Positions 8,473-62,385 of a stretch of DNA of 64,000 nt are shown here, piece by piece. Location: sequence record NC_018859.1. One strand, given 5' to 3'. A model generated the notes under the pieces. That model ran no database searches, was not told the origin of the DNA, and saw only the letters and a list, made by a program, of their open reading frames with translations. Source of the stretch: Escherichia phage ECBP2. The first letter of the stretch is position 1. Each line of letters begins with the position of its first letter. Both the position numbers and the translations under genes were made by a program.

Positions 8473-9267
8473 ATGACAATACGCATGGGAGTGTCCGAGC
8501 TAGACCCTATGGTCCAGCAAGCTTCTAAAAAGTACGGCATTCCTGCTGCTCTTATCCATGCAGTTATTCAGAGGGAGTCTAGTGGTAGACCTTCTGTTGC
8601 ATCAGGTACAGGGCCGGTAGGTTTAATGCAAATAAGTAAAGGGCTGGCTAAGGATTATGGCTACAAACTAGAAGATCGTCTAGACCCTGCTAAGAATATT
8701 GATATGGGTGCTAGGTATATCAGAGACAACTTAAAAGCTTTTGATGGTGATGTGAAGAAAGCTATGGTGGGATATTCTGAAGGGACTGGTGGAGCAAAAC
8801 AAATGTTCGCTGGTAAGAAAGGATTCACACCTCAGGCTTTGGATTCTATGAACAATAAGAACTTTCTTCCTTTCTATACAGCTAATGATGCTGCTGGTCA
8901 GGTTGCTAACCCGATGGGTGCTTTACAGTCAGTACAGCCAGTGAATCAGTTCTCTCCTGAATTGGTTACTAGAGAAGGTGCTGCTAATGCTCCTACTCAG
9001 GCTGAGATTGCTGCTGCTAAGACAGGTGCTCTTGGTGGCTCCCCTACTGAGTTCTATTCTGATGATGTAGAGGAAGCTGGAGAAGATCAGAAGCCACAAC
9101 AGAACTTTGGTAATGCTGCACTAGCTGCTGCTGCAATGTTAGCGGGTAAGGCTCCTAAGTCTCAAACAGTTCAGAGAGCACATGCACCAACTCAAGCAGG
9201 TTCTCAATACAGCCCACATACACAAGCCGTTCTTAGACGTTTGGCAAGTGTTGGTGTTATTAAATAA
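8473..9267 (+). CDS. Virion-associated lytic transglycosylase (SLT domain)
   Basis: ALIHAVIQRESSGRPSVASGTGPVGLMQIS contains the catalytic E-S and GLMQ motifs of soluble lytic transglycosylases. SD is TAAGGAGG. Confidence 0.8.
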   Translation: MTIRMGVSELDPMVQQASKKYGIPAALIHAVIQRESSGRPSVASGTGPVGLMQISKGLAKDYGYKLEDRLDPAKNIDMGARYIRDNLKAFDGDVKKAMVGYSEGTGGAKQMFAGKKGFTPQALDSMNNKNFLPFYTANDAAGQVANPMGALQSVQPVNQFSPELVTREGAANAPTQAEIAAAKTGALGGSPTEFYSDDVEEAGEDQKPQQNFGNAALAAAAMLAGKAPKSQTVQRAHAPTQAGSQYSPHTQAVLRRLASVGVIK

Positions 9268-10338: not shown

Positions 10339-11307
10339 ATGGGTTTATTTGGTGGAGGGGGTAGCACGTCTACTTCCAAAATGACAAGACCTGAATATAT
10401 TCAAAATTATATTGACCAACTAGTCAATCAGGTGAATAACACAAGTTCAGGCGATTATGTTTATAAAGACAATGTAGGTTTTAATCAGAACCAAACTGAG
10501 GCTCTGAATAACCTTTCTCAATCAGGGGCACTAGGTGCTCTCTCTTCTCAGTACATGGGTGCTGCTCAATCTGGTCTAGGTTATCTTGACCAAGCTAATA
10601 CTGGTTACAACAATCTGACTAATTCAGGTCAAATCACTGGAGAACAGATTGGTGCTTTGGCTGGTCAACTCTATGATGATGACGCTGTTCAGGCTGCTAT
10701 TACAGCTAATAACGAACAGACCCAGCAAGACTTGGCTCGTAATGCTCTTCCTCAATTGGCTCAACAGTATGCTGGTCAGCAAGGTTCAGGTGCACGTATG
10801 GCTAAATCTTTTGCTCAGGGTGATGCTCTGAATCAGATGCAGAATACAGCAACCAATATTACTAACAGTGCTTATGACTCTGCTGTCAATCAGGCTCAGA
10901 GTATCCTGTCTGGTAATAGACAATCTCAGGCTTCCGCTCTAAGTGGTCTCTCTGGTATCGGTAACACTATGTCTAACCTTGGTACTCAGGCAGGTCAACT
11001 TTCTCAACAGCAGATGCAGAATCAATGGGCAGCAGGTTTGCAACAGCAACAACAGCAACAGTCTGAATTGGACAATGCTTATACTAATGCTCAGAATGCA
11101 GCCAATTGGGGCTATCAAGACATTAATAACCAACTCGGTGCAGCAGGCGTACTCAATGGTGCTTTAGGGACAACGACTACTAATAAAGTTTCAGGTGGTG
11201 GAAGTGGTTTCTTAGGTGGTGCTATGAGTGGCGCAGCAGCAGGCTCTTCCTTTGGACCTTGGGGTGCGTTAGCAGGTGGGGTCATTGGTGGGTTGGCTAG
11301 TTCTTAA
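10339..11307 (+). CDS. Q/N/S/G-rich low-complexity virion protein (paralogue of 9280..10329)
   Basis: SD TAAGGAGG. Starts MGLFGGGG. Has the same composition, polyQ tracts and glycine-rich hydrophobic tail as the upstream gene. Confidence 0.55.
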   Translation: MGLFGGGGSTSTSKMTRPEYIQNYIDQLVNQVNNTSSGDYVYKDNVGFNQNQTEALNNLSQSGALGALSSQYMGAAQSGLGYLDQANTGYNNLTNSGQITGEQIGALAGQLYDDDAVQAAITANNEQTQQDLARNALPQLAQQYAGQQGSGARMAKSFAQGDALNQMQNTATNITNSAYDSAVNQAQSILSGNRQSQASALSGLSGIGNTMSNLGTQAGQLSQQQMQNQWAAGLQQQQQQQSELDNAYTNAQNAANWGYQDINNQLGAAGVLNGALGTTTTNKVSGGGSGFLGGAMSGAAAGSSFGPWGALAGGVIGGLASS

Positions 11308-50044: not shown

Positions 50045-50407
50045 TTACTCTGCTACCAGAAGGCCCAGAGATTTGCGAATGTAGGCAATGCTACGGAAGT
50101 TTCGGTAGTTTTCTTGGAAGCGCATTTTTTCGAATTCTGCTTCCTGAAGTTCTACCTCTGCTGCATTGTATCCTGCCACAGCCAAACTCACCACATCCTG
50201 AGGTAAGGTATTACGACGACGAATAAGATATTTATTCGCCTTTAACTTGCTTTGTGCACGAGCCATTTTGGCCTTTGCCGCCTTGATGCCATGAGCAATC
50301 CAGAGCAATTGCTGCTCCAAATCATTCTCGTCCATGCCACCCAAATCATTTGCTACTTTATGCAGCGTAGACAGGTTCACATGGCCTTTGATGGGGCGTA
50401 GGTTCAT
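50045..50407 (-). CDS. Hypothetical helical protein
   Basis: 120 aa. Confidence 0.5.
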   Translation of the reverse strand: MNLRPIKGHVNLSTLHKVANDLGGMDENDLEQQLLWIAHGIKAAKAKMARAQSKLKANKYLIRRRNTLPQDVVSLAVAGYNAAEVELQEAEFEKMRFQENYRNFRSIAYIRKSLGLLVAE

Positions 50408-50571
50408 AACTTCTCCTGTTTATCACATTGATTGGTAAGCCAGTTATAAGACCCTCTGTTGTTCTTGCTTAATTCACAAGATACAAAGGAAGTCACACGG
50501 GCAAACCCCACGGTGGCTAAGCAAATAAAGATTGCTGCCAATAAGAACTTAACTTTCAACTTATTATCCAT
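50404..50571 (-). CDS. Small membrane/secreted protein (55 aa, below ORF-track cutoff)
   Basis: SD AAGAGG. Hydrophobic segment FLLAAIFICLATVGF. The stop overlaps the next start (ATGA). Confidence 0.4.
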   Translation of the reverse strand: MDNKLKVKFLLAAIFICLATVGFARVTSFVSCELSKNNRGSYNWLTNQCDKQEKL

Positions 50572-50591: not shown

Positions 50592-50616
50592 AAAAAAGGA
50601 CTCTCCTAAGAGAGCC
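50592..50616 (-). terminator. Rho-independent terminator inside spacer A
   Basis: Minus strand reads GGCTCTC-TTAG-GAGAGTCC followed by TTTTTT. Confidence 0.7.
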
Positions 50617-50812
50617 AAGCTTTAAGGCCAATTAAATAGATATCACCCAATATCTGTGGATAACCTGCTCTTAAAATATTCTATCCGACGGATGTTCGAG
50701 GACTGTTCCTCTCCCTAGCATCGGCCCCATACGGGTAAGATTAAATTAAGTTTAGGTTAGTTGAGCCAGAATAGCTCACATAGCCCTCTGATACTCACAA
50801 GGGCTATAGATG
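50617..50812 (-). ncRNA. Candidate structured RNA element, copy A (homologous to 56233..56462)
   Basis: ORF-free. Begins with hairpin ATAGCCCT-12 nt-AGGGCTAT straight after a stop codon, then a TTTAAT box, then a nested stem whose base pairs covary with copy B. Ends at a terminator. Confidence 0.35.
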
Positions 50813-51064
50813 TTACTCTGTGGCTCCGTCGAAGCGTAGGATTGCTGTTGGAACAGGAATCACAACCATGTCAATCTCTAAACGGAAGAGATGGCCTGTG
50901 CTTAGCTGAACTGCTGTTACCGGTTTAGCGATACCACCAACAGATGCTGAGGGGATTCGAATAAAGAAATCCCCCGGATATTCCGTTGCACGAAATACAT
51001 CTCCCGGTGACATATCCTTTACTTGGGTAATTGATTCAGGAGGGGTTTTATTAGCAATTTGCAT
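50813..51064 (-). CDS. Small protein of the GD(V/I/F)F family (1 of 7)
   Basis: Has the shared N-terminal pattern ...(L/V)..(L/M).(P/L/A)GD(V/I/C/F)F... and a beta-rich 75-87 aa body. Confidence 0.55.
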   Translation of the reverse strand: MQIANKTPPESITQVKDMSPGDVFRATEYPGDFFIRIPSASVGGIAKPVTAVQLSTGHLFRLEIDMVVIPVPTAILRFDGATE

Positions 51065-51325: not shown

Positions 51326-51739
51326 TTAAACAACGAATTGGAACGCTTCGTATCCAAACTTGTACGAGAAACCGTGCTTGAACTTCACTACACGACCACG
51401 ATCACGGAAAGCTTTCAGACGACTGCTGAACCCAGCCATCGGCTCAGGGTCAATAGGGCTGCGAATCTTCATAGCTACAGAGTGCAGCTTGAAGCGCTTA
51501 CCAGTGCTACAGGCCATCATCACGTACTCCATACGAGTAGTCCAGATGTTAAGCACCATGCTTGTTTTCTCCGCTGACCAACCAGTCTTGCGGGCGATTT
51601 CCTTATGGATGTTAAGTTCCAAAGGAAGTGGGAATTGCTTGTTGAATGAAGCCGGATAAAGCTTGACCAGAAGATCAATGTTTTCTTTATACGTTAAGTA
51701 AGCCAATTTCTTGCTTACGTTGGGGAATTTCCCAGCCAT
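51326..51739 (-). CDS. ProQ/FinO-domain RNA chaperone-like protein
   Basis: KENIDLLVKLYPASFNKQFPLPLELNIHKEI....WSAEKTSMVLNIWTTRMEYV......GKRFKL aligns with E. coli ProQ KEVIAFLAERFPHCF...RPLKIGIFQDL...[20 protein letters not shown]...GATRVDL. Confidence 0.6.
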   Translation of the reverse strand: MAGKFPNVSKKLAYLTYKENIDLLVKLYPASFNKQFPLPLELNIHKEIARKTGWSAEKTSMVLNIWTTRMEYVMMACSTGKRFKLHSVAMKIRSPIDPEPMAGFSSRLKAFRDRGRVVKFKHGFSYKFGYEAFQFVV

Positions 51740-53013: not shown

Positions 53014-53231
53014 AAATAGGGGGAGGGGACGAATCCTCCCATATCCTATTAATTAATGTTGCATGTAAGACCTAACAATCCGATGCTGTAGTGGATAGCG
53101 TAAAACGCTTACCGGCATTAAACCCAGCCCATGAGGGGCTTATGTGATTAAAATGCTCAACATTGAGCGGTTAGTTGATAGGAGATCTGAAGTCCTATCT
53201 CAAAGGACTCTCGTAAGAATCCTTCACGATA

Positions 53232-54294: not shown

Positions 54295-54370
54295 TGGTGC
54301 ACCCTACAGGATTCGAACCTGTAACCAACGACTTAGAAGGTCGCTGCTCTATCCATTGAGCTAAGGGTGC
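54295..54370 (-). tRNA. tRNA-Arg(UCU): tRNA-Arg, anticodon UCU, CCA encoded
   Basis: Minus strand folds as a 76 nt cloverleaf: GCACCCT TA GCTC AATGGATA GAGC A GCGAC CTTCTAA GTCGT TGGTT ACAGG TTCGAAT CCTGT AGGGTGC ACCA. Confidence 0.9.
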
Positions 54371-56197: not shown

Positions 56198-56232
56198 TAA
56201 TATAAAGGGAAGCCCTACACGTTAAGGCTTCC
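56198..56232 (-). terminator. Terminator-like hairpin inside spacer B
   Basis: Minus strand reads GGAAGCC-11 nt-GGCTTCC followed by CTTTATATT. Confidence 0.5.
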
Positions 56233-56462
56233 GCTTGTACAAACTGTCGAGAACTCTCTACCCCTAGATTGTTCTCTATCCCAAACCGATACATACCCCT
56301 ACATATCGGAATGCCATTCGAAAATTAAACAGGTTTTAGTCTATCACCGGATGTTTGAGACAAGTCTCGCCCTAGCGGTGAGCCATATGGCATTGAGATT
56401 ATAGTTAATTGAGGAACATCCTCACATAGCCCTCTGATAAACACAAGGGCTATAAGTCGATG
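56233..56462 (-). ncRNA. Candidate structured RNA element, copy B (homologous to 50617..50812)
   Basis: Same order of parts as copy A: post-stop hairpin ATAGCCCT/AGGGCTAT, TATAAT box, covarying nested stem. It has two further hairpins with UAGGGGUA loops, then a terminator-like hairpin. Confidence 0.35.
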
Positions 56463-56687
56463 TTACTTATTAGTTAGTCGAACGTTAGGCACAAGTTTAA
56501 CTGCTGCTGTTTTCATCTCTCCAATGACCTTACCGGTAGAGAGATTAACAAAATAAGCAGTGACTTCACCACCACAAGCTGTACGCATATAATAACTGCT
56601 TCCAGTTCTGTCAAACTGAAAAACGTCTCCCGGCTTTACATCACCAAGAGTTGTGACGCTTTGCTTTTTATCAATATCAATCTTCAT
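56463..56687 (-). CDS. Small protein of the GD.F family (5 of 7)
   Basis: LGDVKPGDVFQFD motif. Confidence 0.55.
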   Translation of the reverse strand: MKIDIDKKQSVTTLGDVKPGDVFQFDRTGSSYYMRTACGGEVTAYFVNLSTGKVIGEMKTAAVKLVPNVRLTNK

Positions 56688-58258: not shown

Positions 58259-58286
58259 ATAAAAAAGCCCCATCCGAAGACGGGGC
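58259..58286 (-). terminator. Strong rho-independent terminator
   Basis: Minus strand reads GCCCCGTC-TTCG-GATGGGGC followed by TTTTTTAT. Confidence 0.8.
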
Positions 58287-58339
58287 GACCTGAAAGAGTG
58301 AACATGACCTCACTCATTTAAGAATCCTCGCAAAGACTC

Positions 58340-58495
58340 TTAAAAAAGCGGCCTCGTTAAAGGCCCGGTCAAATGACCATCCAATAGGGATTGAACCATG
58401 CCAATGATTCACAAAGGGAGTTCCCTTTAGGCATCACTAGCTACGCAAAAAGCCGCACAAAGGCGGCAGACACAAAGACGCTCAAGAAGAGCGTC
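58340..58495 (-). terminator. Cluster of three further terminator-like hairpins
   Basis: Minus strand has three hairpins: GACGCTC-TTCTT-GAGCGTC + TTTGTGT; GCCGC-CTTTGT-GCGGC + TTTTTG; GGCCT-TTAACG-AGGCC + GCTTTTTT. Confidence 0.5.
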
Positions 58496-59740: not shown

Positions 59741-59773
59741 AAAAGAAAAGGCGCTACCCGTTAAGATAGCGCC
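59741..59773 (-). terminator. Rho-independent terminator
   Basis: Minus strand reads GGCGCTA-10 nt-TAGCGCC followed by TTTTCTTTT. Confidence 0.7.
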
Positions 59774-59797
59774 TTATGTTTATTCAAATTGTCTTAC

Positions 59798-62376: not shown

Positions 62377-62385
62377 TATACATTA
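62377..62385 (-). promoter_or_regulatory. TAATGTATA motif inside the ORF-free region
   Basis: Minus strand reads GATTAATGTATACTTC. Confidence 0.4.

Follow-up and report, generated by a model that had tools for sequence, protein, structure and literature searches.

The putL and putR antiterminator RNAs of phage HK022, reportedly described by King et al. in 1996 and Sen et al. in 2001, occur twice per genome in early transcripts, on the sense strand only and upstream of terminators that must be passed; each consists of two stem-loops 0-1 nt apart, with an internal loop of conserved letters and compensatory differences between the copies. The nut sites of phage lambda, also two per genome, place a single-stranded motif and then a hairpin immediately behind a stop codon and ahead of a terminator, as with nutR, which stands between cro and tR1, and the early RNase III sites of T7 and T3 are intercistronic internal-loop hairpins just after stop codons in the polycistronic early RNA made by the host polymerase. 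T4-type phages are said to carry promoter-early stem-loop (PeSL) mobile regulatory cassettes, reportedly the subject of Arbiol et al. 2010, in which a conserved intergenic stem-loop borders variable small early genes and coincides with recombination breakpoints. Here we describe an RNA element in the leftward (minus-strand) early region of Escherichia phage ECBP2 (NC_018859.1; the 64,000-nt stretch analysed is called the window), a phiEco32-type podophage of the subfamily Gordonclarkvirinae (phiEco32/SU7-like) whose nearest relatives are TH34/TH43, StefiGeyer_Bas88 and SU7. The element lies in two spacers amid many small open reading frames (ORFs), one after ORF 50813-51064 (copy A) and one after ORF 56463-56687 (copy B).

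Both spacers hold one and the same conserved RNA module, which is, as far as sequence comparison goes, a real and new structured RNA motif that covariation supports, found in virulent phages of enterobacteria. On the gene-sense strand its parts follow each other as a stop codon, two hairpins (HP1 and HP2), a G-free linker, a third small hairpin (HP3) and an internal-loop hairpin. Its invariant heart is formed by HP3, placed 0-1 nt from the internal-loop hairpin, and by the latter's outer stem of 6-7 bp and short inner stem GAG/CUC, which enclose a 7x7 loop with the strands CUAGGGN and NAACAUC. This core motif measures ~58 nt. HP1 and HP2 are retained as hairpins, but their sequence is replaceable.

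In kind, the module appears to be kin to the phage early-transcript RNA elements above, and by analogy we favour a mode of working like that of nut and put with membership in neither family. HP3 and the core reproduce the put design of two covarying stem-loops about one unpaired base apart, a resemblance of architecture only, and the other put traits listed above are shared as well. The put sites, however, lie near the promoters of two divergent operons, whereas the module copies stand in series, kilobases into the leftward early region, and HP3 has only 3 bp and is embedded in a larger multi-hairpin spacer. No homology is claimed, and nothing put-like was among the Rfam matches of both spacers up to E 10 (HK022 itself was not compared). 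The position after a stop codon and before a terminator, and the order of single-stranded motif and hairpin, recall nut; unlike nut, the module has no hairpin with a conserved GNRA-like loop, and no N-like gene was identified. No counterpart of boxB was found, the loops of HP1 (UUCG, CCCG, UACG or 12 nt) and of the inner stem (ACAG, GUAA, CUUG) being variable; the only conserved hairpin loop is the RUAU of HP3, on its 3-bp stem. Compared by eye with boxA (CGCUCUUA / GCUCUUUAACAA), the B copies offer CUCAUUAAC, which agrees with the rrn boxA at 8 of 11 positions at best, and the A copies CUCAACUAAC; the CUC is the 3' arm of HP2, so that the candidate is partly paired.

Covariation supports a selected RNA fold

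The original prediction, made from the window alone, had proposed that the two spacers are homologous, that five base pairs of the nested structure differ through changes on both sides while the joints CUAGGG and AACAUC stay the same, and that this reflects selection on an RNA fold and not the neutral decay of a duplicated spacer. All of the parts that it listed are present on the minus strand in both copies, the two joints are kept and the five double changes are correct, with a sixth, one-sided change (U.G to C-G) besides. It had overlooked HP2, HP3, a GGG-loop hairpin in each tail and a terminator-like hairpin in copy B (56232-56208). Folding of the single copies A and B returned the proposed hairpins plus HP2 and HP3, shared by both.

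We took early regions from 15 annotated phages and scanned IMG/VR, metagenomes and genomes with an exact pattern to collect additional copies. In the full model alignment, which spans 36 copies taken from 21 sources and has 34 distinct rows, the share of paired cells is 95.5%, compared with 81% after shuffling and at most 48% with slid partners, and double changes occur in 25 of the 46 pairs. A MAFFT alignment of the 32 distinct cores, fitted to no structure, gave a congruent picture: 98.8% of the cells in the core stems pair, against at most 50% when the partners are slid. None of 500 shuffles reached the observed pairing. Double changes affect four of the six outer pairs and two of the five inner pairs (6/11 in total); alignment columns 17/50, for instance, hold AU in 18 copies, CG in 8 and GC in 6, and columns 30/37 hold GC in 18, CG in 6 and AU in 3. 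HP3 is 100% paired while it swaps among CCC/GGG, GCC/GGC and GGC/GCC (GC:19/CG:15 and CG:21/GC:13 in its two exchanging pairs). Covariation over homologous spacers of related phages, the check put forward with the prediction, is thus clear in both alignments, and the selected fold is further borne out by the recovery of the B copies with a model that had seen none of them and by a distant contig that keeps both fold and loop letters (both below).

The pairing is better on one strand than on the other. Over the robust helices, 784 of 800 cells (98%) pair on the gene-sense strand and 701 of 800 (87.6%) on its complement, the difference being 83 G.U cells; therefore, the fold belongs to the sense transcript and not to a DNA cruciform or an antisense RNA. 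The letters of the internal loop are invariant save for one position per strand, and these two positions combine as A.G (17 copies), C.A (12) or A.A (3), never as C.G, with the switch between A.G and C.A recurring inside each lineage. Such an alternation would suit a conserved, isosteric non-Watson-Crick pair, and hence a defined three-dimensional motif. The known motifs considered, namely the kink-turn, sarcin-ricin/loop E, the 11-nt tetraloop receptor, group II domain 5, small ribozymes and 5S rRNA (GCCGAUGCUAG versus GCCGAUGGUAG), either did not fit or were alike only at variable positions.

The copies represent about five lineages (Kuravirus A, Suseptimavirus A, Grimontviridae, two B types and one Citrovirus-like contig), and several positions require at least two separate double substitutions despite this limit. 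Among the 25 distinct Gordonclarkvirinae A copies, the stretch from HP2 to the terminator is nearly invariant and the upstream coding sequence cannot be aligned. These results show that selection has kept the fold across Gordonclarkvirinae, Grimontviridae and one Citrovirus-like phage.

Distribution of the module

A BLAST search with the copy A spacer matched 103 phage records, as a rule twice in each; Salmonella phages account for six of these, including 7-11, SE131 and pSal-SNUABM-01 (Grimontviridae), at 70-75% identity. An IMG/VR search for relatives, seeded with the 406-aa neighbour ORF, gave no match. In all, we found the module in Kuravirus, Suseptimavirus, the Salmonella Grimontviridae (7-11) and one Citrovirus-like contig. 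A covariance model built from 18 A-type and Salmonella-phage copies, with no B copy in its training set, recovered every B copy with E values of 1e-7 to 1e-11 (7.9e-11 for copy B of the window) and nothing else. A core-only model run without filters scored copies A and B at 79 and 64 bits, and the next match in the 64 kb reached 12.9 bits (E 0.33). The window therefore holds exactly two copies, and the joint pattern CTAGGG..AACATCCG likewise occurs twice in it, against 0.00 expected from 100 shuffles. The covariance models detected no third copy in the window or in its relatives other than in EcoN5 (L007), which has three because a ~1.5 kb tandem duplication bounded by the module (9046-9216 and 10564-10734) gives it two identical A copies with flanking small genes. 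Further pattern matches (in L012, L013, L020, L021, L023 and many metagenome or genome loci) were set aside as chance, since they lie within coding sequence, lack the outer stem and are missed by the model.

The most informative of the additional members, a distant copy, lies on a 48.7-kb contig (JBOFGJ010000684.1, L065) related to Citrovirus phages of Citrobacter, Erwinia and Klebsiella. Both strands of its outer stem are replaced (AAUAGCG/CGCUAUU) and its HP3 reads CCC-AUAU-GGG; like the other copies, the contig has the loop strands CUAGGGC and AAACAUC together with the pairs GAG/CUC, all unchanged. Its HP1 (UUAAGCG/CGCUUAA) and HP2 are unrelated in sequence to those of the other copies but still form hairpins. 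In CVT22 and Pecta, two relatives of this contig, we found stop-codon-proximal hairpins but not the core. L065 is binned in a Flavobacterium metagenome-assembled genome, and a Kuravirus contig (CALKAR010000070.1, L071) in a Peptococcaceae one; both assignments are probably binning errors.

At the gathering threshold, Rfam 15 recognized only a tRNA-Arg in the window. With E values up to 10, nothing in Rfam covered the module in either spacer; the only hits were matches over the terminator (TarB and STnc100, 21-22 bits where 47-80 are needed) and noise. The module is not mentioned in the genome literature surveyed, which excluded the phiEco32 genome and transcription papers (PMC2587145, PMC3275717).

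Architecture of the two copies

The positions of the parts are collected in Table 1. The 5' edge of the module coincides with the stop codon of the gene before it or lies within 9 nt of that codon, and the gene varies between phages: an edge motif (A/G)(G/A)T(A/G)AC is present in all copies, while the coding sequence 5' of it differs. In phiEco32 the gene upstream of copy A ends 9 nt earlier than in the window, and KBNP1711 has TGA at the copy A stop-codon position. Read-through of the stop codon was considered and rejected. The copy B frame stays open for ~40 codons past the stop (ORF 56325-56444), but in phiEco32 it closes after 18, and A-type copies carry an in-frame TAG two codons on. At least one deposited genome, that of Paul, has a short ORF annotated across the spacer, and the ORF list of the window likewise places 39 aa at 56325-56444 over copy B.

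Table 1. Parts of the two module copies in the window and of the sequences that follow them; sequences are given 5' to 3' on the minus strand.
Copy	Feature	Position	Strand	Sequence or remark
A	Stop codon	50813-50815	-	TAA; ends ORF 50813-51064; inside the conserved 5' edge AGTAAC
A	HP1	50780-50807	-	AUAGCCC...GGGCUAU; base AUAGCC/GGCUAU invariant (L065 excepted)
A	HP2	50762-50778	-	UGAGCUA-UUC-UGGCUCA; fourth pair U-A, C-G or G-C by lineage
A	Linker	50736-50761	-	A/U/C-rich, G-free; with CAACUAACC and the TTTAAT box
A	HP3	50726-50735	-	CCC-GUAU-GGG; 0-1 nt from the next helix
A	Core hairpin	50685-50724	-	CCGAUG-CUAGGGA-GAGGA-ACAG-UCCUC-GAACAUC-CGUCGG
A	Core, outer stem	50724-50719 with 50690-50685	-
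A	Core, internal loop	50718-50712 and 50697-50691	-	CUAGGGA and GAACAUC
A	Core, inner hairpin	50711-50698	-	GAGGA-ACAG-UCCUC
A	nrdD leader near-copy	50646-50679	.	34 nt, 32/34 identical to the E. coli nrdD leader (genome match)
A	Tail hairpin	50638-50655	-	AGAUAU-UGGGUG-AUAUCU, GGG loop; tentative (fold)
A	Intrinsic terminator	50592-50616 (stem 50616-50599)	-	GGCUCUC-UUAG-GAGAGUC + CUUUUUU; 7-bp stem, 4-nt loop
B	Stop codon	56463-56465	-	ends ORF 56463-56687; within AAGTAAC
B	HP1	56426-56453	-	94% identical to copy A HP1 in the window phage
B	HP2	56410-56424	-	UGAGGA-UGU-UCCUCA
B	HP3	56382-56391	-	GCC-AUAU-GGC
B	Core hairpin	56344-56381	-	UCACCG / CUAGGGC / GAGA-CUUG-UCUC / AAACAUC / CGGUGA; 64 bits (core-only model)
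B	Tail hairpins	56309-56286 and 56276-56249	-	both loops UAGGGGUA
B	Terminator-like hairpin	56208-56232	-	GGAAGCC..GGCUUCC + CUUUAUAU; weak U tract; much shorter in phiEco32

The apical pairs of HP1 covary (CG/UG/UA, UA/AU and UG/CG) and its loop varies from 4 to ~12 nt. HP2 was compared between A and B copies by eye because its covariance-model alignment is unreliable for the B copies. The A/T box of the linker, which the original prediction had counted among the parts, reads TATATT, TTTAAT, TAAACA (7-11), TATAAT or TATATC (phiEco32 B) across the copies; it is not kept as a -10 hexamer in relatives, and its standing as a functional part is not established. RNAalifold also predicted a long-range helix between the linker and sequence on the 3' side of the core, and this helix covaries between the A-type and the Salmonella-phage copies; we regard it as tentative, since its 3' strand is the first of the two DnaA boxes described below and the alignment of the B copies is unreliable there. 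A hairpin AUAGGA..UCCUAU followed by CAACUAACC (53169-53177) in another spacer of the window (53014-53231, minus strand) echoes HP1 and the linker of copy A, without a core; neither covariance model detected this spacer.

Downstream of the core, the hairpin in the copy A tail is tentative because RNAalifold favours another pairing (UAUCCA/UGGGUA); it resembles the copy B hairpin CCGAUAUGUA-GGGG-UAUGUAUCGG. The stems of the phiEco32 B tail differ from those of the window yet still pair (ACGUA/UACGU and CUCCUA/UAGGAG). Runs of G occur in the loops of the copy B tail, in the core loop (CUAGGGN) and in the loop of the copy A tail (UGGGU), and the repeated UAGGG-type motif may be a binding determinant. 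A G-quadruplex in the B tail was rejected because it would require loops of excessive length between its G runs, and a gp36-type middle promoter (TAATGTATA) in the same tail because phiEco32 itself has ACGTAT at that place.

Terminators, promoters and recombination

Both copies have the same surroundings: the module begins where a variable small early gene ends, and a terminator, or a hairpin that resembles one, precedes the following gene, with no recognisable promoter in between. Copy A is closed, as had been predicted, by a canonical intrinsic terminator, a GC-rich hairpin with a U tract that abuts the ribosome-binding site of ORF 50404-50571. It is annotated as a terminator in SU7, 4E8 and 7-11, is kept in phiEco32 and 7-11 (with C-G, U.G or G-C as the seventh pair) and is nearly invariant in the 25 distinct copies.

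The early region as a whole contains 28 terminator-like sites, against 10.8 expected from shuffled sequence. Four such hairpins crowd within 230 nt at 58267-58495 (minus strand), and a 12-bp terminator lies 1.3 kb upstream of them (59748-59775). A tRNA-Arg(UCU) gene (54295-54370, minus strand) sits between copies A and B, a position kept in relatives.

In phages of this type, the published sigma-70 early promoters lie far upstream, between genes 120/121 and before gene 125 (SU10 paper and table S2). Genes 69-125 are classed as early (SU10 table S2), those downstream of copy A belong to the early class in the published promoter and gene tables, and the real early promoters of phiEco32-type phages are near consensus (SU10 table S2). 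The phage sigma factor uses tAATGTAtA promoters for the middle and late genes (SU10 paper). In the window, a perfect TAATGTATA, the phage-sigma promoter motif, lies at 62377-62385 (minus strand) inside a strong sigma-70 early promoter cluster (62402-62202).

Our promoter scan revealed no sigma-70-like site in either copy, that is, no -35 and -10 hexamers at 16-18 nt spacing, and such hexamers are not conserved among relatives. As no promoter is conserved inside it, the module looks like a 3' untranslated region (UTR) or intercistronic part of the early transcript. On the same strand, no good promoter-like site was found from the copy A terminator to ~34760 (~16 kb), where a AAATGTATA motif follows; therefore the downstream genes appear, on these simple scans, to depend on transcription that passes the copy A terminator.

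In the lineage of SU7, 4E8, TH42 and the window, the copy B sequence is found in HP1 of copy A, in place of the phiEco32-type A apex, which points to an exchange between copies A and B by recombination or gene conversion. The genes upstream of copies A and B are weak paralogues in the window lineage (35% identity, E 5e-7). The conserved module is thus a site of early-gene exchange too, likely as a by-product of its conservation.

The copy A tail resembles the host nrdD leader

Of 5426 complete E. coli genomes, 5423 match the 34 nt at 50679-50646, each at a single site on the chromosome: the nrdD leader, over a stretch that ends just 5' of the nrdD Shine-Dalgarno sequence. These 34 nt contain a double DnaA box made of TTAAGAGCA (50674-50666), GG and TTATCCACA (50663-50655), the first a DnaA-like 9-mer 2 bp away from the second. 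The host counterpart tTTAAGAACAggTTATCCACAg is a DnaA-bound double box by chromatin immunoprecipitation sequencing, with 62-fold enrichment (PMC11317965). Compared with this host site and with titrating sites of the datA type (PMC11317965), the phage has TTAAGAGCA-GG-TTATCCACA and agrees with the E. coli site at 12 of 13 flanking bases; its box, however, is inverted relative to transcription, lies between a structured RNA and a terminator and is missing from copy B, and binding is known only for the host site. All A-type and Salmonella-phage copies keep GGTTATCCACA, and the 34 nt are identical in all Gordonclarkvirinae copies except one with a single substitution. We consider the copy A tail a captured host nrdD-leader site with a putative DnaA-binding double box.

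In this orientation, the sense RNA of the phage is antisense to the nrdD mRNA over the same 34 nt, with one G.U and one U.U and a RNAduplex energy of -57 kcal/mol. This is extended complementarity near a ribosome-binding site, as in base-pairing RNAs, and it is confined to copy A; in the predicted fold of the nrdD leader, the Shine-Dalgarno sequence pairs with a portion of this target. Of the two positions at which the phage departs from the host, one still allows RNA pairing (as G.U) yet weakens the first DnaA box. No E. coli match was found for the controls, namely copy B, the tails of phiEco32 B and L065, another four window spacers and the copy of 7-11; the other spacers and B tails amounted to 1.57 kb. 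In the Salmonella-phage copies ~19-27 nt can pair, and the Salmonella leader is paired no better than that of E. coli. The pairing core is identical in the nrdD leaders of E. coli, Salmonella and Citrobacter, and because of this invariance host-phage co-variation cannot separate DnaA binding from antisense pairing. In the treC-nrdD spacer of E. coli (L074, 1535-1560, plus strand) the strand antisense to nrdD continues from the phage-shared segment into a terminator-like hairpin, GGAAA..UUUCC with a U6 run.

Possible functions of the module

Among the functions considered, we tentatively prefer a cis-acting RNA at the ends of early transcription units on which a protein or RNA polymerase docks and which governs read-through or 3'-end formation at the next terminator, a reading that we hold as possible and short of probable. 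Where a transcription unit ends, the module would work in cis on the early transcript of which it is part. A protein, or RNA polymerase itself, would dock specifically on its internal-loop core and thereby set the amount of transcription that passes the following terminator. In this manner the small takeover genes would be separated from the ~16 kb of downstream genes, as with lambda nut or HK022 put, and HP1 and HP2 would shield the upstream message at its 3' end. In copy A the captured double DnaA box lies ~40 nt upstream of the terminator, and because the module is joined to it there, DnaA occupancy or nrdD antisense pairing might serve as an added input or output. This reading is drawn from the sequence-specific loop, the restriction to the sense strand, the two copies per genome and the position before a terminator without a later promoter; docking is favoured because the letters of the internal loop are conserved and simple hairpin stabilisers need none.

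Several observations weigh against it. The terminator-like hairpin of copy B is weak, and the L065 module also precedes only a weak one. Other terminator-like hairpins of the early region (59775, 58495-58267, 55829 and 53040) have no module upstream, and therefore the module is not a general solution to read-through. The absence of promoters is that of a simple consensus scan, and with about five lineages the shuffle statistics overstate the independence of the copies. We saw no riboswitch-type alternative pairing of the module with the terminator; the resemblance to boxA (CUC-N2-3-UAAC) is weak and lies partly inside HP2, and the hairpin loops vary at the places where an N-like peptide would make contact. 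The literature surveyed on these phages yielded no data on transcript ends, processing or binding.

A different role, argued for chiefly by the copy A tail, is that of a stable RNA acting in trans. Here the 3' UTR would be freed by termination and/or an RNase E cut in the G-free linker, the core would bind a chaperone or phage protein and the tails would be its cargo, that of copy A pairing with the nrdD leader and altering the synthesis of anaerobic ribonucleotide reductase. The best argument for it is the 34-nt complementarity at -57 kcal/mol, and the U6-tailed canonical terminator, the retained G.U, the near-invariance of the 34 nt in Gordonclarkvirinae, the lack of host matches in the control spacers and the Shine-Dalgarno pairing in the predicted leader fold all point the same way. 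There is also a precedent, the lambda small RNA (sRNA) LPR1/PreS, which boosts translation of the host dnaN (10.1101/2024.10.31.621285): like this and other 3' UTR-derived or phage base-pairing sRNAs, copy A combines a U-tailed terminator with long complementarity to the leader of a host DNA-precursor gene. In copy A, however, the complementarity coincides with a DNA-binding site, so the same 34 nt are accounted for at the DNA level. No complementarity to the host is detectable in the tails of copy B, phiEco32 B and L065, the Salmonella-phage copies show no preference for the Salmonella leader, the invariant host core makes co-variation uninformative and no promoter or processing site is known. 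A ProQ/FinO-like ORF two genes upstream of copy A (51326-51739, minus strand, 137 aa) would supply a candidate partner, and the original prediction had put forward binding to it as a check. It only just reaches the Pfam threshold for ProQ (27.3 bits, cutoff 27) and has homologues in SU7-like phages and, at 27-30% identity, in Salmonella (Grimontviridae) phages; none was detected in 16-18 kb stretches from phiEco32-type phages that carry both copies, so such a phage protein is unlikely to be an obligatory partner, and the link is not established. On balance we judge the trans-acting RNA somewhat unlikely. The related idea of an independent sRNA gene, with the A/T box as its -10, a start just before HP3 and an RNA of ~110-140 nt that ends at the terminator, draws on TATAAT in copy B, TTTAAT in copy A and a possible CTGACT-18-TATATT in phiEco32 copy A. 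Against it stand the blank promoter scan in both copies, the unconserved box, the missing -35 in copy B and the near-consensus form of the real early promoters of these phages; we find it highly improbable. The discrete RNA of 150-200 nt that had been thought possible is not established.

If the module served processing or stability of the early RNA instead, HP1 and HP2 would protect the upstream 3' end, the linker would be an RNase E site, and HP3 with the core would be a 5' protective or RNase III-type structure as in the T7 early region. The start at the upstream stop codon, the GC-rich HP1 (often with UUCG/UNCG loops and without a U tail), the G-free linker, the likeness of the internal-loop hairpin to the T7 R sites and the place in a long polycistronic early region suit this view. 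The coaxial double-stranded RNA of at least 20 bp that marks RNase III substrates is nevertheless missing: 6-7 bp, the 7x7 loop and 3-5 bp are all that can stack, and in most B copies 6 bp are followed by the loop and a 3-bp stem (GAG-CUUG-CUC). Moreover, generic stabilisers have no need of 12 strictly kept loop letters or of isosteric covariation, and unlike the T7/T3 sites the module occurs at only two among dozens of gene junctions. A role in processing or stability is unlikely in our view. A mainly DNA-level role is very unlikely in our judgement, be it as a replication origin or DnaA-titrating site, as cruciform or protein-binding palindromes, or as an early-gene recombination cassette of the T4 kind. 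It would explain the perfect TTATCCACA and the second box at 2 nt from it, taken from a site bound by DnaA in vivo and invariant across two phage groups, as well as the upstream genes that differ between phages and break exactly at the 5' edge of the module, the identity of the copy A and copy B HP1 in the window lineage with its weakly paralogous upstream genes, and the EcoN5 duplication. Copy B and L065, on the other hand, have no DnaA box, the G.U pairs confine a good fold to one strand, HP1 loops of 4 to ~12 nt suit a hairpin and not an operator of fixed spacing, and recombination needs no compensatory changes. Unlike PeSL cassettes, the module lacks a conserved promoter (no conserved -35/-10 in the scan), is longer and is held by covariation at the RNA level. 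Chance, or the neutral remains of a duplicated spacer, deserves next to no credence: a duplication did occur, the upstream genes being distant paralogues, but the larger alignment, the shuffle, pairing and covariance-model results and the conservation across three phage groups, also where the upstream genes are unrelated, refute it.

In its boldest form, the docking reading would see the core as a new RNA for which host RNA polymerase, or a phage factor that travels with it, is the docking partner, and which drives early read-through of terminators in virulent phiEco32- and 7-11-type phages. Copy A would then be wired to the captured nrdD operator, so that DnaA occupancy or nrdD antisense pairing couples the turn from immediate-early to delayed-early expression, or the anaerobic deoxyribonucleotide supply of the host, to the replication state of the cell. 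As a whole this scheme is decidedly unlikely.

Significance

phiEco32 is a model for phage control of the host RNA polymerase, through the sigma factor gp36 and through gp79. How its sigma-70-driven early region passes many terminators is unexplained in the literature surveyed, and a small covariation-backed motif that precedes a conserved terminator and is common to coliphages and Salmonella phages is a testable candidate. The module merits an entry in Rfam; short ORFs are at present called across its spacer (in Paul and, by the ORF list, over copy B). The near-exact host nrdD DnaA operator in a phage spacer suggests that these gut phages tap the regulation of DnaA or of nucleotide supply. 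If the core does dock a protein or the polymerase, it would be a new example in the very short list of RNA-based controls of transcription elongation; as the scaffold of a trans-acting RNA, it would be among the few known in virulent phages.

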